Assembly (NCBI GenBank): GCA_019912545.1
Contig: JAIOIK010000204.1
Coordinates: 79-64,078, forward strand
DNA: 64,000 bases
From: Ignavibacteria bacterium
GTDB taxonomy: Bacteria > Bacteroidota > Ignavibacteria > Tepidaquicellales > OLB5
Direction: 5' to 3'
The notes under the pieces were generated by a model that made no database searches, was not told the origin of the DNA, and worked only from the letters and a program-made list of their open reading frames with translations. Shown here piece after piece: positions 3,635 through 52,986 of this stretch; position 1 is the first letter of the stretch, and every line of letters begins with the position of its first letter. A program made the translations under genes and the position numbers.

Positions 3635-6600
3635 TTATTTTACAAGAATCATTCTTTTGACATTAGTATAATTTCCGGCATTCAGCCTGTAGAAATAAAC
3701 ACCGCTTGAGACATATGATGCATCCCAGTCAACTAAATACACGCCCGGCTGAAGCTGCTGGTCAATAAGCGTAATAACTTCACGGCCCAGAATATCATAC
3801 ACGATCAACCTGGTAATAGCTGTCTTTGGAATATCCACTTTTATTTTTGTAACTGGGTTAAACGGATTTGGATAGTTGTTATACAGCTTAAACTCCTTAG
3901 GTATGATATTTGTAATTTGCGTTAAGCCAATTGGCGCAATCCTGAATGACCAGACTTCGCTCCAAACGCTGTAACCTCCCGGATTGTATGACCTCACCCG
4001 CCAATAATATGCAGAGTCGTTTTGCAAACTTCCGGCCGGTACCATAATGCCTGATGTTGTGATCTCTGTGGAATCATATGCAATAGATGTAAAGCCTGTA
4101 TCTCTGGCTACCTGCACCTGGTATCCTGTTGCAGTTGAAATGCTGTCCCAATCCAAAACCGGAGTTAATGATAGTCCTTGAGTGCCGTCTAAAGGAGAAA
4201 CCAGATTAGGCGCTGCAGGCGGAACAGGAACAGTTGTGAAATTCCACGTTTGGCTGAACTGGCTGTAGCCGCCCACATTTTTTGCGCGTACCTTCCAGTA
4301 ATAAACCGTTAAGGGATTAAGTCCGCTTACGTTTCTCACTGAATCTGTTACCAATGAATCATCCACGACCATTTGTGTAAATACCGAGTCTCTTGCAAGC
4401 ATTACATGATAATGAGTTGCGCTTGGAAGCCTGTACCATATCATTTGCATATTCAGCGGAATATTAATGGCATTATCCTGTGGTGAAAATTGCAGTGGTA
4501 TTGTCGGATTCTGTATAATTGTATTAAAACGGAACCACCGTGAAAAACCGCCCCAGCCGATCTCGTTCTTTGCCTTAACACGCCAGTAATATCTTGTCTG
4601 GTTTACAAGTGAGTTTACGGTCTTAAATGAATCAACTAAGTTGGAATCAATTACAACAGATGCTCCAAGTGTATCAAGATTCAGTTCAAACCAATACTTC
4701 TGAATACTCTCAGCGCCAAAGAAGGTGTTTTTTACAAATGGAGCGCGGTCGGTCTGATCGTTTGCAATAGCCCAGCGGAATGTAATATTCACCGGCTGGT
4801 TAACTGCGCTATCGGGCGGTGAAAGCAGCTCTACCTGGTAAGGCGAGCCAAGTGTCCTGAATTTCCACGCAGGGGAGTAACTGCTTGTGCCGCCAACATT
4901 TTTGGCATTAACACGCCACCAGTAATTTGTGAGCGGCTGCAAACCCGCTACCGACTTGATGCTATCAGTTAATGTTGAATCATTTACAATGATACTTGTG
5001 AACAGAGAATCACTTGCCAATTGCACTCTGTATGTTTGTGCTGTTGGCCTTTTTAACCAAACGAGATTCAAAGAAAGCAATAATCCGGTCTGATTATTGA
5101 GCGGCGAAAACAGAACCGGCGCTGTTGGTGCCGCAATAATAGTTGTGAATTTGAAGGCAGTTGAAAAACCGCTTGTACCTGCAATATTTTTTGCATTAAC
5201 GCGCCACCAATAGCCTGTAAGGTTGCTTAAGGCTGAAATATTTTTTGTTGTATCTGTAAGAGTAGAGTCATTTACAATAATATTGCTGAAACCGGCATCA
5301 GTAGAAACCTGCAGGCGGTATGTAACGGCAAATTGCGGTTTACTCCAAACCAGATTAAGAGATAATGGCTGATTAACAGAATTATCCGGCGGCAAAAGTG
5401 GATTTGGCGAAGCCGGAACAGGAGGTATTGTTGTAAATTGCCAAACAGAAGAATATCCGCTAGTGCCCGCTGCATTTTTGGCGTTAACACGCCAGTAATA
5501 AGTTGTGTTGTTATTTAAGCCGCTCACAGATTTTGTTGTATCGGTTATGGTTGAATCATTCACGATAAGATTGCTAAAACCTGCATCAGTTGCAAGCTGA
5601 ACACGGTATGTAGCAGCAAATTGCGGTTTAGACCAAACCATAGTAAGGGATAACGGCTGATTAGCAGAATTATTTGGCGGAGAAATAGGATTGGGTGAAG
5701 CAGAAACAGGCGGCATGGTTGTAAACTGCCATGCAGAAGAATAGCCGCTTGTTCCCACTGCATTTTTTGCATTTACACGCCAGTAATAAGTTGTGTTACT
5801 ATTTAATCCGCTTACAGATTTTGTAGTATCGGTTACAGTTGAATCATTAACTATGAGATTGCTGAACCCGGCATCTGTTGCAACCTGTACGCGATAGGAT
5901 GTACCTGATGTTTTGCGCCAAATTAAATTTAGAGTGGTTGGTTGGCTAAGAGAATTGTGAAAAGGTGAAATCAACGTTGGAGGGAACGGTACCTGATGAT
6001 ATTTTAGTATGTTAATATCGAAATTGCCACTAACAGCAATTTGACCAGCCAAATAGACGTTACCATAAACATCAACAAAAATGTCTTTTACTTCATCAAA
6101 AGTATTGCCGCCGGGTGTATTATATACTGTGGACCAACTTAGATTACCAATCAGATCATACTTTAAACAATACAAATCTCTTAGGCTTGGATTGCTTTCA
6201 TTTGCCCAGCCTATCACATATGCATTGCCCTGATTGTCGGCAGAAAGGCCGGTTCCACCTTGATTACCTCCATAACTTGGTGCATAAATCTGTGACCATA
6301 TTTGGTTACCGCTAGTATCATATTTTATAGTCAGTGTTTGCGAGCCCGTCATGCCTGCCACAAATAAATCGTTATCACTATTGATCGCGATATTCCAACC
6401 GTGATCACTGCTAGTAGTCGGTCCGGCAAAACGCCTTTCCCAAATTAGGCTTCCAGAATTAGAATATTTCAAAGTTGTACAATCATCCCCTGTTCCACTG
6501 CCATTACTAGAGCCAGTTACATATAGGTTACCTAAATTATCCAATACTAATTCATTTGCAATGTCAAGCGCGTTGCCAGGCCCATTGTATCTTTGTGTCC

Positions 6601-7327
6601 ATAGTTGATTACCGCTGGCGTCATACTTTACAGTAGCATAATCAACACTTGTGCCACTGCCGTCACTCCATCCTGTTACATACACATTGCCTGAATTATC
6701 AACACGTATGGAATATGCATAATCATTACCATTACCTGTTCCGTTATATGTTACAGCCCATAATTGATTTCCGTTTAAATCATATTTAATAGTTATATAA
6801 TCATTGCTTGATATTCCGGCACATAAACCCGTTACATAAACATTGCCTGAATTATCTGTTGCCATTGAATAAGGAATCTCATTTGCATTATTTGCTGCAT
6901 TGTTATACCTCGCAAGCCAAATCTGATTTCCATTGGTATCCAGTTTTAAAGTTGCAATATCACCATTGGTTGCACTCGTACTTGTGCCAGTGATACATAA
7001 GAATCCTGAATTGTCAAGAGTAATATAGTATGGATTATCTGTCGCATTCCCTGGTCCATTATAGCGCTTTTCCCAAATCAAAGCTCCATTTGAATTGAAT
7101 TTTAGGATCACATAATCATTTCCGGTTCCAATTCCAGCACTGCTACCAAGTGAATAGACATTACCAGTTTTATCGGCTATGATGTATTTCCCATATATAA
7201 AATCTTGTTCACCGTCAAAACCATTTCCTGGCCCATTATATCTATATACCCATTGCTGGGCGACCTGTGCATCAAGAATTTTTAACGAAAAGATCAGTAC
7301 TAAAAAAAAGAATATTATTCTCTTCAT
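3635..7327 (-). CDS. large secreted beta-propeller (SBBP-like repeats) / FN3-like repeat protein with a T9SS C-terminal sorting domain
   Basis: It has a signal peptide and about 10 copies of the 'YNGPGNxxD...VTG' motif. These are followed by seven roughly 95-aa repeats ('YRVQLATDAGFSN..YYWRVNAKN'). The C-terminus reads 'YNNYPNPFNPVTKI...GVYFYRL'. Confidence 0.85.
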   Translation of the reverse strand: MKRIIFFFLVLIFSLKILDAQVAQQWVYRYNGPGNGFDGEQDFIYGKYIIADKTGNVYSLGSSAGIGTGNDYVILKFNSNGALIWEKRYNGPGNATDNPYYITLDNSGFLCITGTSTSATNGDIATLKLDTNGNQIWLARYNNAANNANEIPYSMATDNSGNVYVTGLCAGISSNDYITIKYDLNGNQLWAVTYNGTGNGNDYAYSIRVDNSGNVYVTGWSDGSGTSVDYATVKYDASGNQLWTQRYNGPGNALDIANELVLDNLGNLYVTGSSNGSGTGDDCTTLKYSNSGSLIWERRFAGPTTSSDHGWNIAINSDNDLFVAGMTGSQTLTIKYDTSGNQIWSQIYAPSYGGNQGGTGLSADNQGNAYVIGWANESNPSLRDLYCLKYDLIGNLSWSTVYNTPGGNTFDEVKDIFVDVYGNVYLAGQIAVSGNFDINILKYHQVPFPPTLISPFHNSLSQPTTLNLIWRKTSGTSYRVQVATDAGFSNLIVNDSTVTDTTKSVSGLNSNTTYYWRVNAKNAVGTSGYSSAWQFTTMPPVSASPNPISPPNNSANQPLSLTMVWSKPQFAATYRVQLATDAGFSNLIVNDSTITDTTKSVSGLNNNTTYYWRVNAKNAAGTSGYSSVWQFTTIPPVPASPNPLLPPDNSVNQPLSLNLVWSKPQFAVTYRLQVSTDAGFSNIIVNDSTLTDTTKNISALSNLTGYWWRVNAKNIAGTSGFSTAFKFTTIIAAPTAPVLFSPLNNQTGLLLSLNLVWLKRPTAQTYRVQLASDSLFTSIIVNDSTLTDSIKSVAGLQPLTNYWWRVNAKNVGGTSSYSPAWKFRTLGSPYQVELLSPPDSAVNQPVNITFRWAIANDQTDRAPFVKNTFFGAESIQKYWFELNLDTLGASVVIDSNLVDSFKTVNSLVNQTRYYWRVKAKNEIGWGGFSRWFRFNTIIQNPTIPLQFSPQDNAINIPLNMQMIWYRLPSATHYHVMLARDSVFTQMVVDDSLVTDSVRNVSGLNPLTVYYWKVRAKNVGGYSQFSQTWNFTTVPVPPAAPNLVSPLDGTQGLSLTPVLDWDSISTATGYQVQVARDTGFTSIAYDSTEITTSGIMVPAGSLQNDSAYYWRVRSYNPGGYSVWSEVWSFRIAPIGLTQITNIIPKEFKLYNNYPNPFNPVTKIKVDIPKTAITRLIVYDILGREVITLIDQQLQPGVYLVDWDASYVSSGVYFYRLNAGNYTNVKRMILVK
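3945..5985 (-). repeat. intragenic tandem array of seven ~285-bp (FN3-like) coding repeats
   Basis: The protein-level repeats are listed above. The first three copies are nearly identical at protein level. Boundaries are approximate. Confidence 0.7.
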
Positions 7328-30456: not shown

Positions 30457-31767
30457 ATGACCTCAGTAAAATACAAATTATCTTATCTGCTGCCGGTTTT
30501 GTTTTTGGTTCTTTTTTCTTCATCGGGATGCTTTGATGTCAAAAGAGAGATAAAGATGAATCCTGACGGAACGGGTCTGGAAAATATGTATATTACTCTA
30601 GATAAAGATTTTTATGATAGAATGAATACTCTTGCTGATCTGGATAAAACTGGAAAGTGGAAGAAGAAGCTTGATTCACTTAGTGATGACGGGATAATAG
30701 AAAGGGGAATCACTGCTAGTCTTCAGCGTGTTGGCGGAACTTCGGTAAAAGAACTAAAGGTTACACTTAATCCGGACGCCTCAAAACAGATATATCTGCA
30801 GTATTCTTTTGATGAACCAGGCGTGCTTGCTAAAGTTGTTAAAGAAGGAACATTTTTCTGGTCTAATCAGCTTCCCGTTATATGGAATACTATCAAATTC
30901 CAGTATGAAGAGGATAACCTGACTTTCAAACAGACTATCCGTAAAGCTGAACGCAGCTTTGACGATGAGCTTATGCACACTGTGTTTTCTTCTACTTATC
31001 CCGGGAAAAAGATCACATATGCTATTGAATTCCCGTTTGAAGTAAAGGAATCCAATGCAATGACTGCATCAGGAAATATGCTTACCTGGGAGATGTCGAT
31101 AGAAGATGTCATCCACAACCAGCAGACAGATACTGCCGGGCTTGTAAAAGATGCAAGTCTTGAACTTACTTATGCAGAAAAGATAGACAGAACTGTAGGC
31201 AAAGTCAGCCAGAAAGAAAACCCGCTAATCCGTGTGCAGGTTTATAACCGCAATAAGGAGCCGGTCAAGATCGGTACCGGAGTAGTTCTAAAAGACGGGA
31301 TGCTTGTAACAAATTTTAAACTGATGAATCTTATAGAAGGCGCAGGGTATTTCAGTGTGATACTTCCCTCTGATTCACTTGCCGGAATTGACGATATGAC
31401 AGAAAAAGACCTTGATGAAAAGCAGGACCTCGTATTTTTGAGATACGGAAGTTCGGATAAATTTAAACCAATAAAGTACGCTGTTACCGGCAATATCAAA
31501 TATGGAGATAAGGTGAAGCTCTTCTACTATCCCAATACACTTTCTTCAACAGTTTATTCTATGGATGGCAATATTGCAGCTACAAAAAAATGGACGAAGA
31601 AAACCAGTGTCATTGAGATAAAACCTTCGAAGCCTATAACACTTGAAGGCGGCGCAGTATTTAATGAAGCCGGGGAGTTTTTGGGAATGATCACTCAGGC
31701 GTTTGACGGAGAAGTTGGCAAACTTTATCTAGTGCCTGCAGATTATATAAAATCGCAAATGCCATAG
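30457..31767 (+). CDS. lipoprotein with a C-terminal trypsin-like fold that appears catalytically dead
   Basis: It has the lipobox SSGC. The segments 'GTGVVLKDGMLVTNFKLM' and 'LEGGAVFNEAGEFLGMI' resemble S1C protease motifs but lack the His and Ser. Confidence 0.5.
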   Translation: MTSVKYKLSYLLPVLFLVLFSSSGCFDVKREIKMNPDGTGLENMYITLDKDFYDRMNTLADLDKTGKWKKKLDSLSDDGIIERGITASLQRVGGTSVKELKVTLNPDASKQIYLQYSFDEPGVLAKVVKEGTFFWSNQLPVIWNTIKFQYEEDNLTFKQTIRKAERSFDDELMHTVFSSTYPGKKITYAIEFPFEVKESNAMTASGNMLTWEMSIEDVIHNQQTDTAGLVKDASLELTYAEKIDRTVGKVSQKENPLIRVQVYNRNKEPVKIGTGVVLKDGMLVTNFKLMNLIEGAGYFSVILPSDSLAGIDDMTEKDLDEKQDLVFLRYGSSDKFKPIKYAVTGNIKYGDKVKLFYYPNTLSSTVYSMDGNIAATKKWTKKTSVIEIKPSKPITLEGGAVFNEAGEFLGMITQAFDGEVGKLYLVPADYIKSQMP

Positions 31768-31792
31768 TATAAGAGATCAGGTTCAAGAATAG

Positions 31793-31827
31793 AAACGGAT
31801 TTCCTGAAAGGGGAAACCGTTTTTTTT
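31793..31827. terminator. hairpin plus T8 between convergent genes
   Basis: The sequence is AAACGGATTTCCtgaaaGGGGAAACCGTTTTTTTT, a 12-bp stem with one A-A mismatch. Confidence 0.7.
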
Positions 31828-31830
31828 ATG

Positions 31831-32331
31831 CTATGATACAGGTTTGAATTGTTCAAACGCGTTCAAACAATCACTGCAGTAGTGAAGTGAGCGGCAAAGT
31901 GTAGGGCCGAATGGAGATTTCAATAGTGTGTTCCTGCTTCCGCAATGCGGGCATTTTACTTTTTCAAGCATTTCTATTTGTACAAGTTCGCTAAAATGCT
32001 CCGGCGGTGCAAGCCCATGCTTCTTCAGCGCCTCGCGGCCTTTTTCGGTGATCATATTCGTATTCCACTGGGTATCAAAGTTAGTTATAACCTCATATCC
32101 TGCTACGTCAAGTTTTTCGATCCTCTCTTTAACCATACTCTCCATGATCTTTAATGCGGGACAGCCTGAAAAAGTCGGTGTTAGCCTTACTGATACAAAA
32201 TTATCTTCCGAGACCTCAATACCGGTGACAATTCCAAGATCTACAATAGATATAGTCGGAATTTCCGGATCCTTTACATCATCCAGCGCTTTCAATATAT
32301 CATTTTTTGTCTGAACCGTTTTAATTTCCAT
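31831..32331 (-). CDS. paaD: 1,2-phenylacetyl-CoA epoxidase subunit PaaD
   Basis: It has a MIP18-like 'DPEIPTISIVDLGIV' and a C-terminal Cys cluster CPHCGS...CSDC. Confidence 0.8.
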   Translation of the reverse strand: MEIKTVQTKNDILKALDDVKDPEIPTISIVDLGIVTGIEVSEDNFVSVRLTPTFSGCPALKIMESMVKERIEKLDVAGYEVITNFDTQWNTNMITEKGREALKKHGLAPPEHFSELVQIEMLEKVKCPHCGSRNTLLKSPFGPTLCRSLHYCSDCLNAFEQFKPVS

Positions 32332-32359
32332 TATCTATCTTGTTCTTGTAATGCATGAT

Positions 32360-32401
32360 CCTGCAACTTGAAACCTGCTATCTGTAACTTACATCCTGTA
32401 A
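32360..32401 (-). repeat. six degenerate tandem heptamers (minus sense TTACAGG ATGTAAG TTACAGA TAGCAGG TTTCAAG TTGCAGG) in the paaC-paaD spacer
   Basis: Read directly from the sequence. They belong to the same YYNCARG family as the arrays at 33614 and 34088. Confidence 0.6.
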
Positions 32402-32406
32402 CCAAC

Positions 32407-33180
32407 TTACCACTCTGCTTTCGGGTCAAGCCTGAATACTTCACCCATTTCTTCCAGCATAGGCTGCAGATATTCGGTATGGGTGCCCGTTCTGCCGCCA
32501 TAAGCTGGTTTCCAATCAGCAGGATCCGGTAAAACAAGTTTTGCCTTTTCCAGAACAGGTAAAATTGCCTCTATCCACTTATTTTGAAGAGTCTTTTCTC
32601 CCTCAAAAATATTCATACTATTTAATTCTGACGTAAACGGACTCTCTTCGAAAATTCCAAGAGCCAGGTTAAACGAATTGTCAATAGTATCCTGCATCCT
32701 CTTATGACTTTCTTCATTTGCGCGTCCAAGCTGTTTTACCCAGGTATCAGCATGCATAACGTGGTACTTAATTTCACCTCGGTATTTTTTGGCAAGCTTT
32801 GCAAGCGGATCAAGAGAGGACTCAGCCAGCATATTAAACCTGATATGCTCTGCGTGGCAAAAGAAAAAGTTTCTTATCAGACTAAAATCATATTCGCCGA
32901 TCGGGTATTCAACTAAATGACAGCATTTGAATTCATTGGCATTGCGGGTAAATGCAATTGTGTCAGGATCTTTCTCGCCAAGGGCATGGAGTATCTCATA
33001 AATGTGGAGTGACTGGCCTATCTTATCCTGAGCAATAGATGAAAATGCTATGTCTTCTTCAAGCACTGGGCCCAAACCTGTCCATTCGCTGTCTCTGTGA
33101 CCCAGAATCAGCTGGTCGTCCGCTATTTTATACAGAAATTCTTTTACAGCTTCAAGCTGAGTCTTTGTATATTTCATCAC
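32407..33180 (-). CDS. paaC: 1,2-phenylacetyl-CoA epoxidase subunit PaaC
   Basis: It is a ferritin-like PaaC/PaaI homologue ('IADDQLILGHRDSEW'). Its start overlaps the paaB stop as ATGA. Confidence 0.8.
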   Translation of the reverse strand: MMKYTKTQLEAVKEFLYKIADDQLILGHRDSEWTGLGPVLEEDIAFSSIAQDKIGQSLHIYEILHALGEKDPDTIAFTRNANEFKCCHLVEYPIGEYDFSLIRNFFFCHAEHIRFNMLAESSLDPLAKLAKKYRGEIKYHVMHADTWVKQLGRANEESHKRMQDTIDNSFNLALGIFEESPFTSELNSMNIFEGEKTLQNKWIEAILPVLEKAKLVLPDPADWKPAYGGRTGTHTEYLQPMLEEMGEVFRLDPKAEW

Positions 33181-33605
33181 TTCTTTACCTCTTTATTTGC
33201 TTTCTGTACATTTCTTCTTTCTTCTTTCCTGTCTTTAATGCCATGCTCCTGCTGGTACTTTCTAATTCTATCCATACAGTAATAATCGCTCGCCTCGCGG
33301 TAAGTTTTCTCAGGTGTTGTTTCAAAAACATCCTGGTCTTCGTAATCAGAAGCTGTTACAGCCGCGCTTTTTATTACCCATAAATTCGCCGTTTGCCTCC
33401 TTCTGCCGAAAGCCTCCTTGGCCATGATCAGAGCCATCTCCGGAGAAGCTGCGTGCACTATGCCGACGTGAATATGCTGCTCACCGCGCTTTTTCTGGTG
33501 GAAAACCTCGTAAGTTTCCCAGTTTTCCTGTTCTTCCAGTATTTCTTTCCCGTCTTCATTCGAGGGAAGGTCCATTCTGTTTACTCGTGGGTCTATTGAT
33601 TTCAT
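33177..33605 (-). CDS. paaB: 1,2-phenylacetyl-CoA epoxidase subunit PaaB (with N- and C-terminal extensions)
   Basis: The core reads YEVFHQKKRGEQHIHVGIVHAASPEMALIMAKEAFGRR..LWVI. The ATG at 33605 is preferred over the TTG at 33620. Confidence 0.8.
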   Translation of the reverse strand: MKSIDPRVNRMDLPSNEDGKEILEEQENWETYEVFHQKKRGEQHIHVGIVHAASPEMALIMAKEAFGRRRQTANLWVIKSAAVTASDYEDQDVFETTPEKTYREASDYYCMDRIRKYQQEHGIKDRKEERRNVQKANKEVKK

Positions 33606-33613
33606 TTGCTTAT

Positions 33614-33648
33614 GTTTCAAGTTTCAGGCCGCAAGTCTCAGGTTGCCT
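33614..33648 (+). repeat. five degenerate tandem heptamers (plus sense GTTTCAA GTTTCAG GCCGCAA GTCTCAG GTTGCCT)
   Basis: Read directly from the sequence. The array is inverted relative to the one at 34088..34115. Confidence 0.6.
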
Positions 33649-33666
33649 GAGTTCAATAAAATTTGT

Positions 33667-34044
33667 TTATTTTTCAGGTGGATTCTTTTTTAAATAATTA
33701 ATAAAAGCATAAAGCTGTTTAGATAATACAACAAGTTCATTTGTAGTTTTCAAGTAGAATTCTTCGTTTACTAGCCCAATTCTTTTTAGGAAAATGATCA
33801 TATTCCTTACTTCTCCTGTTGATCCTTTAGAGTATCTCAGAAATTTAATCAGATCCTTATGATTATCATACTCAAAACCTTCAGAAATATTGTTGGATAT
33901 TGATATTGCTGCGCGTATAATCTGGTCTTTTATACTATACTCCCGTGCAAATTTTTCCTCTCTGGTCAACAGATAAATATCTTCAGCGATTTTCATCGCT
34001 TTTTGCCAAACTTCAAGATCTTCAAACCTATTTGCCTTTGCCAT
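33667..34044 (-). CDS. four-helix-bundle protein ('23S rRNA intervening-sequence protein' family, TIGR02436-like)
   Basis: It contains FEDLEVWQKAMKIAEDIY.LT...REYSIKDQIIRAAISISNNISEGF......FLRYSKGSTGEVRN. Confidence 0.85.
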   Translation of the reverse strand: MAKANRFEDLEVWQKAMKIAEDIYLLTREEKFAREYSIKDQIIRAAISISNNISEGFEYDNHKDLIKFLRYSKGSTGEVRNMIIFLKRIGLVNEEFYLKTTNELVVLSKQLYAFINYLKKNPPEK

Positions 34045-34087
34045 TCCGGGTTATTGTGAGTTTTACACTTTAATTTTTTTGCTTTTA

Positions 34088-34115
34088 CTTGAAACCTGTA
34101 GCGTGCAGCTTGCAG
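34088..34115 (-). repeat. four degenerate tandem heptamers (minus sense CTGCAAG CTGCACG CTACAGG TTTCAAG)
   Basis: Read directly from the sequence. They lie in the spacer between the paaA stop and the four-helix-bundle gene start. Confidence 0.6.
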
Positions 34116-34117
34116 TT

Positions 34118-35107
34118 TTACGCCAACGGAACTGTATATTTCTGCTCTGCTTTCTGCAGTGCTCTTCTTACCCATGCGCCGCGTTCTTCTGCCCATCTTC
34201 TTACCTGCAGGCGTTCTTTGTTACAAGGACCGTCACCGTTTATTACACGTTTGAATTCGTCCCAATCGGGCTCTGTGTATTCCCACTGGCCGGTTTGTTC
34301 ATTCTTCTTCAAGTTAGGATCAGGAATACTTAGGCCAAGATCCCATATTTTAGGCACATATTCATCAAGGAATTTCCGGCGCATTTCATCATTTGTAGCC
34401 AATTTGACTTTCCACTTCATCAGTATCTCTGTGTGTTGAGAAACTTTATCCGGCGGGCCGTGGAAATGCATTATCGGAGTCCACCACCTGTTGAGAGCAT
34501 CTTGCACAAGCTCGCGCTGTGCCGGAGTTCCCGTAGCCAAAAATACAACATTATCATGCCCGTACTTAAGATGAAAAGATTCTTCACTGCAAATTCTTTC
34601 CAGTGCGCGGCAATAAGGTCCGTATGAACCTTTTGAGTTAGTTACCTGGTTAATTATCGCACCGGCATCTATAAGCCATGCAATGATTGCCGTATCACCC
34701 CACGTCATTGCGGGGTAATTAAATACATTTGAGTACTTCGATTTACCGCTTATCAGATCATTGATCATATCCTCACGGGTTTTGCCCAGGGTTTCGGCTG
34801 CGCTGTACAATAATTGACCGTGCCCAACTTCATCCTGCACCTTTGCCATTAGAGCCAGCTTCCTTCTGAAGCCCGGTGCGCGGGTTATCCATGTTCCCTC
34901 AGGCAGTGCGCCAATTATTTCGGAGTGAGCGTGCTGTTCAATCATGCGGATAAGCTGCTTCCGGTAAGCCTTTGGCATCCAGTCCTTAGGCTCGATCTTT
35001 TCGCCGCGCTGAATGCGTTCTTCAAACTCAGCAAGTTTTACGGGGTCTTCACCTTCGGTTAAAGATGAAACCTTTTGTTTTGGGTCAACGTATGCGTTTT
35101 CGTACAT
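34118..35107 (-). CDS. paaA: 1,2-phenylacetyl-CoA epoxidase catalytic subunit PaaA
   Basis: It has di-iron ferritin-like motifs ([19 protein letters not shown]) and is 329 aa. Confidence 0.9.
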
Positions 35108-35188
35108 ATTATTTTCATTCTGAGCGTAGCGAAGATCCCACTATCGCTTTTTTTGATTAATAAATTATTTCAAAGATAATTTTTTCTA

Positions 35189-35219
35189 TTCATCCGATGA
35201 CATCAAGTCATCGGATGAA
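35189..35219. promoter_or_regulatory. perfect 13-bp inverted repeat TTCATCCGATGAC-N5-GTCATCGGATGAA between the TetR gene and paaA
   Basis: Read directly from the sequence. No clear U-run follows, so it could be an operator or an RNA hairpin. Confidence 0.4.
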
Positions 35220-35227
35220 TTTAATTT

Positions 35228-35812
35228 TCAAGCAATTGATTTAACTTTCAACCCAGACATAATAAATTCCGTCAAATGCTCTGCAATTTCATCCGGCTGC
35301 ATTTTGCCTTTTGGGTCATACCATTCGATAATCCAGTTAACCGCTGAAAGTATTGTCAACACGGCGAATTTCTTATCAGTTGCCTCAAAAACATTTTCGT
35401 TCTCGCCGTTTACAAGTATCTGCGTGAAACCTTCTTCATACCTGTTACGAAGCTTTATGAAATCTTTAAGTTTTAGCTTTGCTATGTGCCGCCACTCCCT
35501 TAAGAAAACTGAAGATGCATCAAGATCGCCAGTAATAATCCGTACGTGATTCTTGATAGCAAGTGTAAGTTTCTCAGCGGCATTAAAGTATATGTCGTTC
35601 ACTTCATCAATTGCTTTTATCAGCTCATCAGCCATCTTGAAGCAAATAGTTTCAAGTATTTCATCTTTTGATTTTATGTGACTGTAAAGGCTCGCCGCTT
35701 CAATCCCCATTGCTCCTGCAATATCACGCATGCTAGCTGCTTCAAAGCCCTTTTCTTTAAAAAGCTTTGCTGAGACCCTTAATATCTGCTCTTTTCGAGA
35801 TAAATTTTCCAT
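35228..35812 (-). CDS. TetR/AcrR family regulator (PaaR-like by position)
   Basis: It has the HTH 'FEAASMRDIAGAMGIEAASLYSHIKSKDEIL' and lies directly upstream of paaA in the same orientation. Confidence 0.8.
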   Translation of the reverse strand: MENLSRKEQILRVSAKLFKEKGFEAASMRDIAGAMGIEAASLYSHIKSKDEILETICFKMADELIKAIDEVNDIYFNAAEKLTLAIKNHVRIITGDLDASSVFLREWRHIAKLKLKDFIKLRNRYEEGFTQILVNGENENVFEATDKKFAVLTILSAVNWIIEWYDPKGKMQPDEIAEHLTEFIMSGLKVKSIA

Positions 35813-36041: not shown

Positions 36042-36245
36042 TTATGTTAACAACTCCATGTTCTGTTCATACTTCAATTTCTTATCAACGGTCAAAAGTA
36101 TATCAAAATTATCATCAATGGCAGCCTTCAGCAAACTTCCGTTCTTTAAGTTTGCCCATCCCTTTTCTCCTACAGTAAATGTATCATATTCAATAAGATG
36201 AAATTTTAGCTTTCTTGGTAAACATTCATCTAACAGAATTTTCAT
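36042..36245 (-). CDS. DUF5615/PIN-like toxin, apparently truncated or frameshifted at the C-terminus (67 aa)
   Basis: It reads MKILLDECLP...FDILLTVDKKLKYEQN. After the stop, another frame continues 'NITIVVFDVTKKQN*', which looks like the displaced family C-terminus. Confidence 0.55.
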   Translation of the reverse strand: MKILLDECLPRKLKFHLIEYDTFTVGEKGWANLKNGSLLKAAIDDNFDILLTVDKKLKYEQNMELLT

Positions 36246-36461
36246 TTAGTCCGGGTTTGTTTCAATCAGGAGTTTTTCAGCAGTTTCCAGCAATATAAGA
36301 GCCTGCTTTCTATTCACGGAAGAAAAGTCCTCAAGAAATGTTTCGATAGTCTCACCTGTCTCTATATAGTCAAACAAATTCTTAATTGGGACTCTTGTTC
36401 CATTAAAAACCAGAGTTCCACTGAGAATTTCAGGATCTATATTTATTACTTTTTGACTCAT
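36246..36461 (-). CDS. DUF433-family antitoxin-like protein
   Basis: It contains DPEILSGTLVFNGTRVPIKNLFDYIETGETIETFLEDF, and its stop abuts the toxin start. Confidence 0.75.
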   Translation of the reverse strand: MSQKVINIDPEILSGTLVFNGTRVPIKNLFDYIETGETIETFLEDFSSVNRKQALILLETAEKLLIETNPD

Positions 36462-49030: not shown

Positions 49031-50407
49031 TTATTTAGTGATTTTATAGGTTTCAACAAGCTTAATGCCATCTTCATACCTTAAAATATTCAGCTCAGAA
49101 TTGATACCGTGGTAATCTAATGAAATTTTTGATTTAATTGCATCGTAATTGACCAGATTTTTCAAAGCAGTGTTAAGACCCTCGCGTGTCTTGGAACCGT
49201 CTCCAATAAGCCTGAAGATCAGTTTAGCCGCATCAAAACCGAAGAGAAAATTCTTTGAAAGTTTGAATTTAGTCTTCTTTAGCTTTTCTTTAAGATCGCT
49301 AAAATCCGGGTCATCTTCGCGGGGGTAGTACTCTGATTCAAACACCAGGTTCTTAAGATACACTCCGTTATCCTGCAGCGTCTTTTCATTATTCCAGTCT
49401 CCGGTGCCGGCAATGTACATGCTTAGTCCATCAGAAAACAGCTGGGGAACAATCACATTGATCTCATTTGGATTGGCGATCGGTATGTAAATAGCATCTA
49501 TAACTCCCTGCACAAATTTAGTTGTTTCAGGCTTAAGCTTGTAAGGCTTGATATTCATAGTATCAATGATCTTTTTGGCATTAGCCCCAAACATGTAATA
49601 GATACTGATATCCATATTAAATGAAATAGACGAATCTATCAGGCTCCACCGCACTCCTGCATTTTCAAGCTTTTGTTTCTGTGTTAAATTCAGATTTGCG
49701 GCATTAACGAACATATCGTTTTCACGGATGTACTTTACGATCTTGCCTATCTGTTCAGTTATCTCCTTCGGGTCTTTTGGGTATGATTCTGCAAGCAGAA
49801 CCTTCCCTCCCATGGTTTTAACTTCATTCTCAAAATACTTCTTAAAATTTTCGCCATAGGTCTCTTCGTAAATAACAGCAAAATTCTTCAGCCCGTTTTT
49901 TTTGATAAGGTAATCTGCCATTAATTTACCACGGACCTCGTAGCTTGGATTGAGCTGGTAAACATAATTGTGAGCAGAAGCAAGCTCGTCTCCAGTTGCA
50001 GTAGGGGAGATTATCGGGATCTTGAACTGCGGGCCGTTTATTGCCGATTCGCTTAACTCACTGCTGAATACCGGTCCTATTACCCCGATCATTTCTTCAT
50101 TTTCACCAAAAGATTTGATAATTTCTGCGGCAACTACGGGATCACGCCTGGTATCCATGACTTCAAGAGTTATCTTTACCGGTGCATTCTTGCTGTATTC
50201 TGTTAAGGCAAACTTTATTCCGTCAAGAATTTCTCCGCCAAGTTGTTTCTTTGAATTATCATCACTTTCCGTAAAGAGCGGCAGGGCAACTCCAATTTTC
50301 ACTGTTGATTGCGAATGCAAAGCTGAAAAATTTGCAAAGAGTGCAAACAGCGAAATAATGAAAAACTTGGTATTTAGTATTTGATATTTGATTTTTGTTA
50401 CTCCCAT
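49031..50407 (-). CDS. periplasmic binding protein type 1 (Leu/Ile/Val-binding or LpoA-like)
   Basis: It has a signal peptide followed by 'VKIGVALPLFTES...ITLEVMDTRRDPVVAAE'. Confidence 0.6.
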   Translation of the reverse strand: MGVTKIKYQILNTKFFIISLFALFANFSALHSQSTVKIGVALPLFTESDDNSKKQLGGEILDGIKFALTEYSKNAPVKITLEVMDTRRDPVVAAEIIKSFGENEEMIGVIGPVFSSELSESAINGPQFKIPIISPTATGDELASAHNYVYQLNPSYEVRGKLMADYLIKKNGLKNFAVIYEETYGENFKKYFENEVKTMGGKVLLAESYPKDPKEITEQIGKIVKYIRENDMFVNAANLNLTQKQKLENAGVRWSLIDSSISFNMDISIYYMFGANAKKIIDTMNIKPYKLKPETTKFVQGVIDAIYIPIANPNEINVIVPQLFSDGLSMYIAGTGDWNNEKTLQDNGVYLKNLVFESEYYPREDDPDFSDLKEKLKKTKFKLSKNFLFGFDAAKLIFRLIGDGSKTREGLNTALKNLVNYDAIKSKISLDYHGINSELNILRYEDGIKLVETYKITK

Positions 50408-51963
50408 TCAATTGTTGATGGCGGTTTGTTGCTTATATCATATACAACGCGGTTTATTCCCTTTACGTTGTTGGTGATCTTTGTTGAGATCTCTTCCAAA
50501 GCGGCCGGTGGCATGTGAAACCAGTTTGCAGTCATGCCGTCAACGCTTTCAACAGCCCTAAGTGCAAGAACTCTTTCATAAGTTCTTACATCACCCATTA
50601 CTCCCACGGTTGATACAGGCAATAATACACAAAATGCCTGCCATATCCTGTTGTAAAGCTTATGTTTATGCAGGCTTTCTCTGTAAATATAATCTGCATC
50701 CCGTAATATATCAAGTTTTTCTTTTGTAACACTACCTAATATTCTTACTCCAAGTCCCGGCCCGGGGAAGGGATGCCGTTCAAGTATTACTGCAGGTACC
50801 TTTAACAGCTTACCGGTTATACGAACTTCGTCTTTGAACAGTTCCCTGAATGGCTCAATCAGGCTCATATGCAGCGATTTGGGCAAGCCGCCCACATTGT
50901 GGTGTGATTTGATCGTCACAGAGGCACCCTGAAATGATGATGACTCAATTACATCGGGATACAATGTGCCCTGAACAAGGAACTTTATCTTGTGCGTTTT
51001 CTTTCTGCTGCTTAATCTCCTGCTTTCTTTCCGGGCAAAATCCTGGAATACATCTATGAACGCCTTACCGATTATTTTCCTCTTTTTTTCCGGATCAGTT
51101 ACTCCTTTTAAACGGGTTAAAAAAATCTTTGACGCATCTATAAACCTTAGGTTAAGTTTCTTTGAGAAATATTTTATGATCTCTTTGCTTTCATTTTTTC
51201 GCATCAGCCCGTTATCGATATGTACGCATATCAGGCGTTTTCCTATGGCTTTATTTATGAGATATGCCGCCACTGCAGAATCAACTCCGCCGCTCATTGC
51301 GCAAATAGCGTATTCATCTCCAACCTTAGCGCATATCTCCTTAACCTTCTCATCAATAAATGAACCCATCTTCCATTGATTCTTTATCCTGCAGACCCTG
51401 TACAGGAAATTCCTTAAAATTCTGGTCCCTTCCTGTGTGTGGTTAACTTCAGGGTGGAACTGAACACCGTATATCATTCCTTTTTTGGATTCAAAACTGC
51501 TGATAAGCCCGTTCTCACTCCGGGAAGTCACTTTAAATTCTTTCGGAAGAGTTTTAATATGATCATGGTGGCTCATCCAAACTGTTAATTTTTTTGAAAC
51601 CCCTTCAAGTATTACAGTTCTTGCTGTAATTTGAATATTTGTCTTGCCGAATTCACGGGTCTTGCCGCCCTTTACAGTTCCCTTGAAGTGATGTGAAAGC
51701 AATTGCAGTCCGTAGCAAATTCCAAGAATTGGCAATTTAAGATCGAGTATTGAGTTTGCAAGCCGGTTTGCGTTTTTCATATAAACGCTTTGCGGCCCGC
51801 CTGAGAGAATTATTCCTTTGAGCGACTTATCATTCTTTAAGTATGTCAGATCAGCCGTACAGGGCAAAATTTCTGAATATACATGACACTCCCTTACCTT
51901 ACGGGCGATCAGCTTGGTATATTGCGAACCGAAATCTATTATTATTATTTTATCTGCTGTCAT
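50398..51963 (-). CDS. guaA: glutamine-hydrolysing GMP synthase
   Basis: The GATase domain starts 'IIIIDFGSQYTKLIARKVRE', with a PP-loop 'SGGVDS' and a C-terminal 'TIEWE'. The ATG at 51963 is preferred over the upstream start at 52026. Confidence 0.95.
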   Translation of the reverse strand: MTADKIIIIDFGSQYTKLIARKVRECHVYSEILPCTADLTYLKNDKSLKGIILSGGPQSVYMKNANRLANSILDLKLPILGICYGLQLLSHHFKGTVKGGKTREFGKTNIQITARTVILEGVSKKLTVWMSHHDHIKTLPKEFKVTSRSENGLISSFESKKGMIYGVQFHPEVNHTQEGTRILRNFLYRVCRIKNQWKMGSFIDEKVKEICAKVGDEYAICAMSGGVDSAVAAYLINKAIGKRLICVHIDNGLMRKNESKEIIKYFSKKLNLRFIDASKIFLTRLKGVTDPEKKRKIIGKAFIDVFQDFARKESRRLSSRKKTHKIKFLVQGTLYPDVIESSSFQGASVTIKSHHNVGGLPKSLHMSLIEPFRELFKDEVRITGKLLKVPAVILERHPFPGPGLGVRILGSVTKEKLDILRDADYIYRESLHKHKLYNRIWQAFCVLLPVSTVGVMGDVRTYERVLALRAVESVDGMTANWFHMPPAALEEISTKITNNVKGINRVVYDISNKPPSTIEWE

Positions 51964-52065
51964 TCTCGCCTTGTCATTCCCGTCCCGCAACAAGTGCGGG
52001 ATAAACTGCGGCTGGAATACATTCATGGGATTACATGAATTTCTCCAAAAATTGATATTTGCTAT

Positions 52066-52986
52066 TTACAATTTACTATTTGCTATCAGGTATTTACTAT
52101 TTGCAATAGCAAGTTTAACTGCTCCCCAAACAGGCTTATACTTTGCCCTGAAGAGTTCAATCTTTCCGTATTTCTTTCTTGCCGGTGCTGTTAAATATTT
52201 CTCAAGAAGCTTCTCTTCTGTAAACAGTGAACCCATAAGCGCTATTCTGCATTTCCTGTTCTTTAAAGGGATAAAGTGTGTAAGGAGATTTTCTGCTGCA
52301 CTTTTGAGAATTTCGATCGAAACTTTATCGCCCTTTTCCGCAGCCCTGAAGACATGTCGGGTGATTTTCGAAATTTCAAACTGATTTATGTAAACTTCCT
52401 GAATTATGTTCGTTGAATCAATGCAAAATTCTTTTTTCAATATCTCTACAAGCCTTGTTCTTGCGGCTCTGCCATCATAATACCTTGTTACCTTATACAA
52501 AGCCTCTCTTGCAATCCAGTGTCCGCTTCCTTCATCACCAATATGCCTGCCCCAGCCGCCTATTCTGATCAGTTTGCCTTTGCTATCTATATAATAGAGT
52601 ATTGAACCTGTCCCGGCAATCAGTATCCCGCAATTTTTATCTCCCGGCTCAAACGCAGAGGCAAATGCTGTTTCTGTATCGCTAAGTACTTTGATATTTC
52701 TGATGCCGGTTTGTTTTGTTACTGCAACCTCAAGCTTTTTTCTGTCCTTCTCAAATCTTGCCCCTGATATTCCCGCTGCAACTGATACTACTTCTTCTTT
52801 CCCAATACCTCTTGCCGAATCATTAACAATATGAGCCAGTCTTTTGGCGGATTCCTCAAATCCCAGCACATTTAGATTAATTGAAGCATACTTCTTCAGC
52901 TCTCCTTTTTTCTCTGCAGAGCCAATCGGTAAAATGAATGCTTCGCTTTTTGTAGCGCCGGAATCTATTCCTAAGACGTATTTCAA
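52066..52986 (-). CDS. BadF/BadG/BcrA/BcrD-type ATPase (N-acetylglucosamine kinase-like)
   Basis: It contains LGIDSGATKSE, IAGTGS and GGWGRHIGDEGSGHWIA. Confidence 0.75.
   Translation of the reverse strand: MKYVLGIDSGATKSEAFILPIGSAEKKGELKKYASINLNVLGFEESAKRLAHIVNDSARGIGKEEVVSVAAGISGARFEKDRKKLEVAVTKQTGIRNIKVLSDTETAFASAFEPGDKNCGILIAGTGSILYYIDSKGKLIRIGGWGRHIGDEGSGHWIAREALYKVTRYYDGRAARTRLVEILKKEFCIDSTNIIQEVYINQFEISKITRHVFRAAEKGDKVSIEILKSAAENLLTHFIPLKNRKCRIALMGSLFTEEKLLEKYLTAPARKKYGKIELFRAKYKPVWGAVKLAIANSKYLIANSKL

Follow-up and report, generated by a model that had tools for sequence, protein, structure and literature searches.

A four-helix-bundle gene between inverted heptamer arrays in the paaA-paaB spacer of an Ignavibacteria genome

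The 4HB gene and its arrays in the paa operon

We analysed a 64,000-nucleotide stretch of DNA from an Ignavibacteria bacterium (GenBank assembly GCA_019912545.1, contig JAIOIK010000204.1, positions 79 to 64,078 of the forward strand; hereafter the window), in which a gene for a 125-aa four-helix-bundle (4HB) protein lies between paaA and paaB of the paaABCD operon and is bracketed by short tandem arrays of degenerate heptamers. This arrangement, first described in an earlier note on the same DNA, is real. Genes were identified with NCBIfam and Pfam profiles; all those discussed are on the minus strand, and the locus reads as follows in the direction of transcription.

35228..35812, minus strand, TetR-family regulator (PF00440 and PF17932), 5' of the paa operon
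34118..35107, minus strand, paaA, 1,2-phenylacetyl-CoA epoxidase subunit A (TIGR02156, 449 bits)
34088..34115, minus strand, upstream arm (U array), four degenerate heptamers, in mRNA sense CTGCAAG CTGCACG CTACAGG TTTCAAG
34045..34087, minus strand, A-rich leader of 43 nt from the U array to the 4HB start codon (sequence reading)
33667..34044, minus strand, 4HB gene, 125 aa (PF05635/TIGR02436, '23S rRNA intervening sequence (IVS) protein'/Avd-like), the cargo
33614..33648, minus strand, downstream arm (D array), four clean heptamers and one degenerate, of a type complementary to U
33177..33605, minus strand, paaB (PF06243; TIGR02157 at 76.1 bits, under its 85.45 cutoff)
32407..33177/33180, minus strand, paaC (TIGR02158, 220 bits)
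32360..32401, minus strand, lone array in the paaC-paaD spacer, six heptamers in U-array orientation
31831..32331, minus strand, paaD (TIGR02159, 160.6 bits)

The U array begins 2 nt after the paaA stop codon, and the leader that joins it to the 4HB gene is unstructured on its own. The D array lies in the opposite orientation, its clean units reading TTTCAAG TTTCAGG CCGCAAG TCTCAGG on the plus strand (33615-33642); it holds a 6-bp hairpin (CTCAGG/CCTGAG) and ends 9 nt before the paaB ATG. This ATG is the paaB start, and the TTG at 33620 in the list of open reading frames (ORFs) would extend paaB into the array. In the minus sense (32401-32360) the lone array reads TTACAGG ATGTAAG TTACAGA TAGCAGG TTTCAAG TTGCAGG. 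The three arrays are where the earlier note had placed them, with the flanking pair inverted as described, and two details are corrected: the fifth D unit, TTGCCTG, does not fit the YYNCARG family to which it had been assigned, and the supposed 'ATGA' overlap of paaB and paaC is in fact GTGATGA, in which the TGA stop shares 1 nt with the ATG, or 4 nt with a GTG start.

The 125-aa protein matches TIGR02436 with 102.6 bits (cut-off 24) and PF05635 with 106.5 bits (cut-off 33.8) over residues 8-112, and it is similar to the Protein Data Bank (PDB) entries 2GSC (XCC0516; E 1.3e-10, residues 7-120) and 2RLD (E 0.009), both of which have five chains. These matches place the stand-alone gene in the PF05635/TIGR02436 four-helix-bundle family, which takes in Avd, the accessory protein of diversity-generating retroelements (DGRs) (PMC10053308), and it is the sole member of PF05635 within the 64-kb window. 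In two related loci (L001 and L081, introduced below) the 4HB allele has a dN/dS of 0.027, and the strong purifying selection makes clear that the protein is functional. The GC content of the cassette is 0.30-0.35, compared with 0.42-0.50 for the paa genes. Its name does not match its location: the element lies between paaA and paaB and not in 23S rRNA, and none of 80 related 4HB loci holds rRNA, so that 'IVS protein' is a misnomer for that part of the family.

We asked how often chance would give arrays in which four or more tandem units all fit YYNCARG or its complement at six or more of seven positions. Three are observed in the 64 kb, all in the paa operon; 300 first-order Markov simulations gave 0.047 on average, and not one of them reached three. 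The unit sequences differ between arrays even within one locus. Rfam has no family matching the arrays or spacers, and all that it detects in the window at gathering level is two tRNAs, both remote from the 4HB locus.

Arrays beside 4HB genes in related loci and other operons

A scan for paaA, taking one genome per species, gave 80 loci (L001-L080), the best match being an Ignavibacteria metagenome-assembled genome with 90% identity. paaA and paaB are indeed normally adjacent, as the earlier note held, with a gap of at most 150 nt in 43 of 68 related loci (median 88 nt). Only five of the 80 loci carry the 4HB gene, at two different junctions: between paaA and paaB in L001, L004, L017 (frameshifted) and L075 (truncated), and between paaB and paaC in L005. 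The L017 and L075 copies are decayed, and a jackhmmer search over the ORFs of the 80 loci recovered no further 4HB genes; the gene is therefore not a conserved component of paa operons. All five copies are bracketed by inverted tandem arrays with units of 7-8 nt, and the unit varies by lineage, being TTNCARA in L001, AAGATTG-like in L004, L005 and L017, and GGTAATC in L075. Two sister Ignavibacteria (L016 and L021) have neither a 4HB gene nor arrays at the paaA-paaB spacer.

Where paa operons have further wide gaps, these are filled by unrelated genes for secreted or membrane proteins. The secreted proteins, of about 450-480 aa and with a likely signal peptide and type IX secretion C-terminal tail, are encoded between paaA and paaB in L008, L012, L020, L023, L025 and L052, and apparently polytopic membrane proteins of about 350-470 aa are encoded between paaB and paaC in L002, L003, L009 and L052. 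These genomes are labelled Flavobacteriales and Chitinophaga, and L052 has both kinds.

For the wider family we used 80 independent metagenomic 4HB loci (L081-L160, GC 0.32-0.66), picked by similarity to the window protein. A period-7 array was scored when at least 15 of 21 positions matched at lag 7 within 130 nt of the 4HB gene; this detector is strict, and the resulting frequencies are lower bounds. Lag-7 arrays are present upstream in 39 of 79 loci and downstream in 33 of 74, and no arrays were found at lags 5, 6, 10 or 11. An array with lag 7 or 8 occupies 69 of the 102 spacers adjacent to a 4HB gene, compared with 13 of 77 other spacers in the same loci, the gene calls for these controls being crude (longest ORFs) (odds ratio 10.3, p 8.5e-12). 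The proposed association of arrays with TIGR02436-family genes is thus borne out, as is the description of the cassette as bracketed by inverted degenerate heptamers. Neither of the two outcomes that the earlier note had named as refuting its idea was observed: arrays are enriched beside 4HB genes, and the gene is no conserved part of paa operons. When the proteins are dereplicated at 70% identity, 34 clusters remain; an array lies on one side or both in 27 of these, and on both sides in 15. Flank complementarity exceeds z 3 in 42 of 77 4HB loci, and in many the arms form strong RNA duplexes relative to shuffled sequences, among them L005 (z -8.4), L087 (z -5.1), L082 (z -4.5) and also L081.

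The geometry is similarly regular. Over 50 related cassettes, the median distance from the end of the U array to the 4HB ATG is 22 nt; downstream arrays start a median of 10 nt after the 4HB stop codon, and arrays have a median of 5-6 units. The genes neighbouring 4HB are mostly co-directional with it. The same junctions (trpE-trpG, sufA-sufB, 5' of ruvA, and paaA-paaB) are occupied in different organisms, and the units differ between cassettes whose proteins are 40-60% identical. Annotated isolate records provide two further examples, a 4HB gene between sufA and sufB of Riemerella anatipestifer with AAGGTTY/RAACCTT arrays, and one on a Nostoc plasmid with GGGAAAA/TTTTCCC arrays.

Intergenic heptamer repeats have been described previously from a different direction. 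Rehm et al. reported 186 GGGAATC heptamer repeats in Xanthomonas campestris, mostly of four units and with about 70 convergent pairs; in Xanthomonas and Nostoc the repeats lie between co-directional ORFs, in sense orientation after stops or antisense before starts, and are mostly transcribed (PMC4692102). MacGregor described TAACTGA arrays directly 5' of start codons, with no link to the 4HB family (PMC4679880), and heptamer simple repeats are over-represented in many genomes (PMC4679880, PMC4692102). 4HB, S23 and IVS proteins have no occurrence in either paper. Because the 2GSC protein is from Xanthomonas campestris, where the GGGAATC repeats are known, our prediction was that arrays of this kind would flank its gene. 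This blind prediction held: in Xanthomonas genomes the 2GSC orthologues are located between accB and accC and have inverted GGGAATC-type arrays, with GGGAATCGGGAGTGGAGAATCGGGAATCGG after the accB stop and CCCATTCCCCATTCTCGACTCCCTATTCCC reaching the accC ATG. The orientation rule reported independently for Xanthomonas and Nostoc, after stops and before starts (PMC4692102), also holds for the arrays described here. The architecture is thereby shown to recur around most of the sampled members of the family, in loci labelled Ignavibacteria and Bacteroidota, in Nostoc and in Xanthomonas.

Cassette history, empty hairpins and lone arrays

The order paaA-4HB-paaB is common to the window, L001 and L081, and their flanking genes are roughly equidistant. 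Pairwise protein identities are as follows.

TetR protein: window-L001 75%, window-L081 71%, L001-L081 76%
paaA: window-L001 90%, window-L081 87%, L001-L081 92%
4HB: window-L001 58%, window-L081 55%, L001-L081 96%
paaB: window-L001 75%, window-L081 81%, L001-L081 80%
paaC: window-L001 76%, window-L081 72%, L001-L081 78%

Among the three loci the flanking genes are 66-81% identical in nucleotide sequence, with dS saturated. Between L001 and L081 the flanking genes have 72-81% nucleotide identity and a dS of 1.5-2.9, compared with 90% and 0.64 for the 4HB gene, and the window 4HB gene is about 63% identical to each. The block of high identity shared by L001 and L081 starts at the U array (array and leader 86.7%, ORF 89.9%, downstream array 89.7%), and the adjoining ends of paaA and paaB are at 77.5% and 80%, respectively (cassette versus immediate flanks, p 3e-4). 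Since the discordance runs in both directions, uniform constraint cannot explain the pattern. Judged by these divergences, the cassette, including its arms, is shown to have been exchanged or replaced at a fixed junction, with a history apart from that of the flanking genes.

A comparable pattern is present at sufA-sufB. L090 and Riemerella (L162), the pair with the closest flanks, have SufB proteins that are 88% identical and 4HB proteins that are only 35% identical; for L100 and L090 the values are 81% and 54%, and more distant pairs share 54-62% in 4HB. By the same kind of comparison, sufA-sufB (L090, L100, L110 and L162) provides another example of a junction that stays the same while its cassette turns over. 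The discordance with the flanks at both junctions agrees with the earlier proposal that the insert is a foreign gene cassette. A candidate cassette-less allele, the 'skip 645' joint in X7, has a side of 20 nt, a depth of 2.8 and no precise boundaries, and was not counted.

Inverted array pairs also occur without a gene. In the 80 paaA loci the two arms are either 2-90 nt apart (about 14 cases) or 390-430 nt apart, and pairs of the second class always enclose a 4HB gene. An apparent pair with a separation of 413 nt in L017 (6253-6724) lies within an ordinary minus-strand gene and was set aside. Empty hairpins that fold far better than shuffled sequences include those of L070 (z -9.2), L047 (z -6.3) and L004 (z -3.7). 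None of the empty hairpins in the 80 loci contains a 4HB remnant of 50 aa or longer, short remnants being possible. Two inverted pairs, in L071 (Adhaeribacter, 6985-7260) and L074 (Hymenobacter, 3700-3915), enclose 130-180 nt of non-coding sequence; the L071 loop has several small hairpins similar to repetitive extragenic palindromic (REP) sequences, and the L074 loop a terminator-like hairpin.

Lone arrays are unstructured by themselves. The example in the paaC-paaD spacer has a 14-nt insertion (CTGTAACTTACATC) after 32381 in all four DNA runs, giving eight units compared with six, and the array is absent from L001 and L081, the two closest relatives. Arrays are thus shown to gain and lose whole units. 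The absence from the relatives and the two-unit difference between populations lend no direct support to the suggestion, made in the earlier note, that this third array is a landing pad or scar. Over 15 nt it is 93% complementary to the D array, which in the window it matches better than the U array does. The guaA gene is flanked by two more arrays of this family, missed in the earlier note, and no 4HB gene is near them.

52047..52110, minus strand, about eight units TAGCAAA/TAGTAAA/TTGTAAA (mRNA sense), at the end of a BadF-like ATPase gene and 5' of guaA
50363..50402, minus strand, five units TAACAAA/TATCAAA/TACTAAA, covering the guaA stop codon and the 5'-terminal part of the ORF that follows

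The spacer between the BadF-like ATPase gene and guaA has eight units in the window, three to four in L170 and none in L172-L174, and in L171 (310-536) it has an array of about 170 nt, with about 24 units of TAACAAA/TAGCAAA/TATCAAA. The guaA-spacer arrays of five relatives therefore range from 0 to about 24 units, and none has a 4HB gene there. With unit number so variable and no 4HB gene at guaA, lone arrays are fast-evolving repeats in their own right, and arrays are a broader phenomenon than the cassette. The same counterparts give no support to lone arrays as scars of lost cassettes; of the earlier proposal, the central cassette idea is upheld and this part is not supported. In each of the four DNA runs the contigs end at the 52047-52110 array. 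The counterpart of the 50363-50402 array is AATTACA x4 in L174 and missing in L173; in the window this array runs over the guaA stop into the first codons of a periplasmic binding protein ORF (ATG called at 50407), so that the repeat is translated into the N-terminal part of a probable signal peptide.

Other repeats and small genes are present around the operon. The TetR gene 5' of paaA is kept in most related loci, and between the two genes, at 35188-35220, is a perfect 14-nt palindrome (ATTCATCCGATGAC ... GTCATCGGATGAAT). Read depth rises 5-30-fold at this palindrome in four metagenome runs and many contigs end there with unrelated flanks, indicating that it is a multicopy dispersed repeat. 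A second type of short dispersed hairpin lies directly 5' of start codons, for example CAGTTTATCCCGCACTTGTTGCGGGACGGGAATGACA before guaA, with sites at about 35126-35150 and about 51955-52000 in the window, 5950-5995 in L001 and 2455-2495 in L174; the related copies in L174 and L001 precede guaA and paaA, respectively, and the paaA leader of the window has GGGATCTTCGCTACGCTCAGAATGA. A toxin-antitoxin-like DUF433/DUF5615 gene pair lies at 36042-36461, between a MATE transporter gene and the TetR regulator, and is absent at the orthologous spacer of L081. Elsewhere in the window, a 288-bp tandem repeat (5243-5887; 2.2 copies, 82% identity) lies within a 1230-aa ORF (3635-7327).

Interpretation and comparison with known systems

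We propose that the 4HB gene is an IVS-type cassette that resides in the spacer of an mRNA operon and not in 23S rRNA, and whose arms may form a stem in the transcript; we put the probability of this at roughly 0.6. Read along the operon, the cassette opens with an array right behind the upstream stop codon, continues with a short leader and the ORF, and closes with a complementary array right in front of the downstream start codon. When the spacer-ORF-spacer RNA is folded to its minimum free energy, U pairs with D in both the window and L001. Tentatively, the cassette would be co-transcribed with the operon, and the two arms could base-pair in the mRNA, leaving the ORF as a loop and so insulating the insertion, either because RNase III cleaves the stem as in the 23S IVS or because the paaA stop is brought to the paaB start. 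With the same reservation, the downstream arm may double as the translation-initiation region of paaB; such a leader role for the D arm agrees with the reported position of arrays next to start codons.

Several observations weigh against this proposal. The predicted duplex of the U and D arms in the window is weak (-23.4 kcal/mol, compared with -15.2 +/- 3.9 kcal/mol for shuffles; z -2.1), and the fold of the whole spacer-ORF-spacer RNA is not better than shuffles in either the window (z +0.14) or L001 (z -0.30). The excess of G-U over A-C mismatches expected of an RNA stem is not significant (68 versus 49, p 0.10), and four wastewater metatranscriptomes gave few short contigs, containing parts of paaA and paaC and none spanning the arrays. 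About one third of 4HB-adjacent spacers are without an array at the threshold used, and the family is unevenly sampled because the metagenomic set was picked by similarity to the window protein. The guaA-flanking arrays, both in the window and in the five relatives, have no 4HB gene, and the published counts for Xanthomonas suggest that arrays far outnumber 4HB genes there (PMC4692102). There is also no presence/absence polymorphism of the cassette in four related metagenome populations, all of which carry it, and we found no recombinase, target-site duplication or identical dispersed copies; NCBIfam and Pfam profiles detect no transposase or recombinase in or beside the cassette. Given the weakness of the window stem and that the D arm could pair with the paaC-paaD array instead, function may be degenerate in the window copy.

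A DNA landing pad and an RNA-level element are not mutually exclusive. More speculatively, cassette exchange might use the arms, or lone arrays already in place, as sites of homology or recognition, perhaps with the help of an Avd-like nucleic-acid-binding pentamer. A purely DNA-level explanation would go further and make the 4HB cassette the autonomous and the gene-less hairpins the non-autonomous version of a mobile element that targets or creates array hairpins in single-stranded DNA or cruciforms, with the arrays as recombination sites and the RNA stem incidental. We consider this unlikely, even though it would accommodate much of what is seen: the discordant history with its left boundary at the array, and the turnover at sufA-sufB; the bimodal spacing, empty or about 400 nt, with 4HB as sole cargo; the presence of 4HB at the same junctions in different lineages with different units (paaA-paaB, sufA-sufB, trpE-trpG); the low GC of the cassette; and the absence of both arrays and gene at the L016 and L021 spacers. 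It does not predict that array orientation is tied to the direction of transcription. Nor does it sit easily with a cassette that has no transposase or recombinase, no target-site duplication and no near-identical copies, whose units differ within one locus, which is not polymorphic in four populations, and which none of six genomes has at its lone guaA arrays. A broader version, also doubtful, is that stand-alone PF05635 genes and heptamer-array hairpins could constitute a widespread two-part mobile system in several bacterial phyla, with gene-less hairpins far commoner. An Avd-like pentamer would then recognise the heptamers and mediate or license site-specific insertion or exchange of cassettes in spacers and rRNA helices, and the 23S IVSs would be an rRNA-resident minority.

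The arrays could also be binding sites for the 4HB protein, an Avd-like pentamer sitting on tandem heptamers with about one unit per subunit, and either regulating its own gene and the flanking genes or acting genome-wide. In its favour, 4HB-adjacent arrays have a median of 5-6 units, the commonest length in Xanthomonas is four units (PMC4692102), and 2GSC and 2RLD contain five chains each; Avd, which assists DGRs, belongs to the family (PMC10053308), the 4HB protein is strongly conserved, and arrays and 4HB genes co-occur by lineage (Xanthomonas, Nostoc, Bacteroidota and Coxiella). We nonetheless regard this as improbable. Units differ between arrays of one genome and between cassettes with proteins that are 40-60% identical, no base-specific recognition motif is obvious, and the published Xanthomonas array counts suggest that arrays greatly outnumber 4HB genes.

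It is very improbable that the arrays are neutral filler, slippage-prone heptamer repeats that build up in tolerant spacers without any link to 4HB. Such filler would explain why arrays of 0 to about 24 units are found in relatives at spacers without 4HB, why populations can differ by two units, and why heptamer simple repeats are over-represented in so many genomes (PMC4679880, PMC4692102); it leaves unexplained the ten-fold enrichment beside 4HB when the remaining spacers at these loci serve as the control (p 8.5e-12), the complementarity of the upstream and downstream arrays, the restriction of cargo to 4HB between arrays about 400 nt apart, the success of the Xanthomonas prediction, the heptamers in the Coxiella rRNA IVS, and the separate history that the arrays share with the cassette. 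An orphaned Avd left by a DGR, which the inclusion of Avd-like proteins in PF05635 might bring to mind (PMC10053308), has a negligible chance of being correct and was rejected at the paa locus, where the neighbours are paa genes with no reverse transcriptase, 31700-35300 has no template/variable-repeat pair or long direct repeat, and the protein is under purifying selection in the paa context.

Returning to the IVS-type cassette in an operon spacer, what appears to be new is the link itself, with the 4HB gene as the characteristic cargo of heptamer-array hairpins and an exchangeable operon cassette in several phyla; such a cassette is not described as such in the literature searched. The general association of arrays with 4HB genes is not described in PMC4990558 or PMC10053308, and of these two only PMC4990558 has heptamers beside the ORF. 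The link ties together three separate puzzles, namely the ORF-bearing 23S IVSs, the role of the common 'four helix bundle protein' genes, and the over-representation of intergenic heptamers. Scattered 4HB genes are seen in operons of Ignavibacteria, Bacteroidota, Nostoc and Xanthomonas, and operons that are essential or conserved (paaABCD, accBC, sufAB, trpEG) stay intact with the cassette inside them. Should the arms insulate the insertion or form a stem processed by RNase III, this would be a general way for a foreign ORF to be accommodated inside a polycistronic mRNA, and if the protein acts on the arrays, this would be a first function for stand-alone relatives of the DGR protein Avd. Cultured carriers suited to testing are Xanthomonas, with accB-XCC0516-accC and an existing crystal structure, and Riemerella, with sufA-4HB-sufB.

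Several known systems share parts of this architecture. The Avd protein of DGRs is of the same superfamily, a pentameric four-helix bundle and nucleic-acid-binding cofactor (PMC10053308; 2GSC and 2RLD have five chains); the gene here is alone in a catabolic operon, with no reverse transcriptase, template or variable repeat. REP sequences and bacterial interspersed mosaic elements (BIMEs), as well as REP doublets (REPINs) with their REP-associated tyrosine transposases (RAYTs), are likewise dispersed hairpin-forming repeats in operon spacers, with many gene-less copies and a possible pairing of coding and gene-less forms. Unlike REPIN-RAYT systems, no RAYT or IS200-type transposase is adjacent to the cassette, the arms are tandem arrays with units that differ by site and not copies of one palindrome, and the candidate protein is encoded within the hairpin loop.

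The heptamer simple repeats (GGGAATC in Xanthomonas, GGGGAYT in Nostoc, and TAACTGA in Beggiatoaceae, cyanobacteria and Bacteroidetes) are closer. They have about 4-6 tandem 7-nt copies between co-directional ORFs, lie within about 50 nt after a stop or before a start, have a strand-specific orientation and frequent inverted pairs, vary in length between relatives, and as a published feature are mostly transcribed (PMC4692102, PMC4679880). The window arrays belong to this known but unexplained class of intergenic repeats. The units in the window (CTGCAAG, TTACAGG, TAGCAAA and others) have no GGG runs, and since YYNCARG units are without G-tracts an explanation through G-quadruplexes does not apply to them.

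The 23S rRNA IVSs of Coxiella burnetii and Leptospira are the remaining comparison. We have not filed the element as a 23S IVS because it is not in the defining location, a 23S rRNA helix; it is in the spacer of a protein-coding operon and not in helix 9, 25 or 45. Both of its arms are degenerate tandem heptamers, in contrast to the 23S elements, and excision by RNase III is demonstrated for the rRNA IVS, whose 28-bp terminal stem in Coxiella is cut by this enzyme (PMC4990558); for the paa element such excision is a possibility, and the stem in the window is weak. Both kinds of element carry an ORF of the same family (S23p/PF05635) and have complementary termini able to enclose it, clearly so in relatives such as L005, L087 and L082 and weakly in the window; both are sporadic in distribution, horizontally acquired and lower in GC than the host (PMC4990558), and the Coxiella IVS itself has two to three tandem GACAGAT heptamers directly 5' of the S23p ORF, in a number that varies by strain (PMC4990558), as do the arrays described here between relatives.

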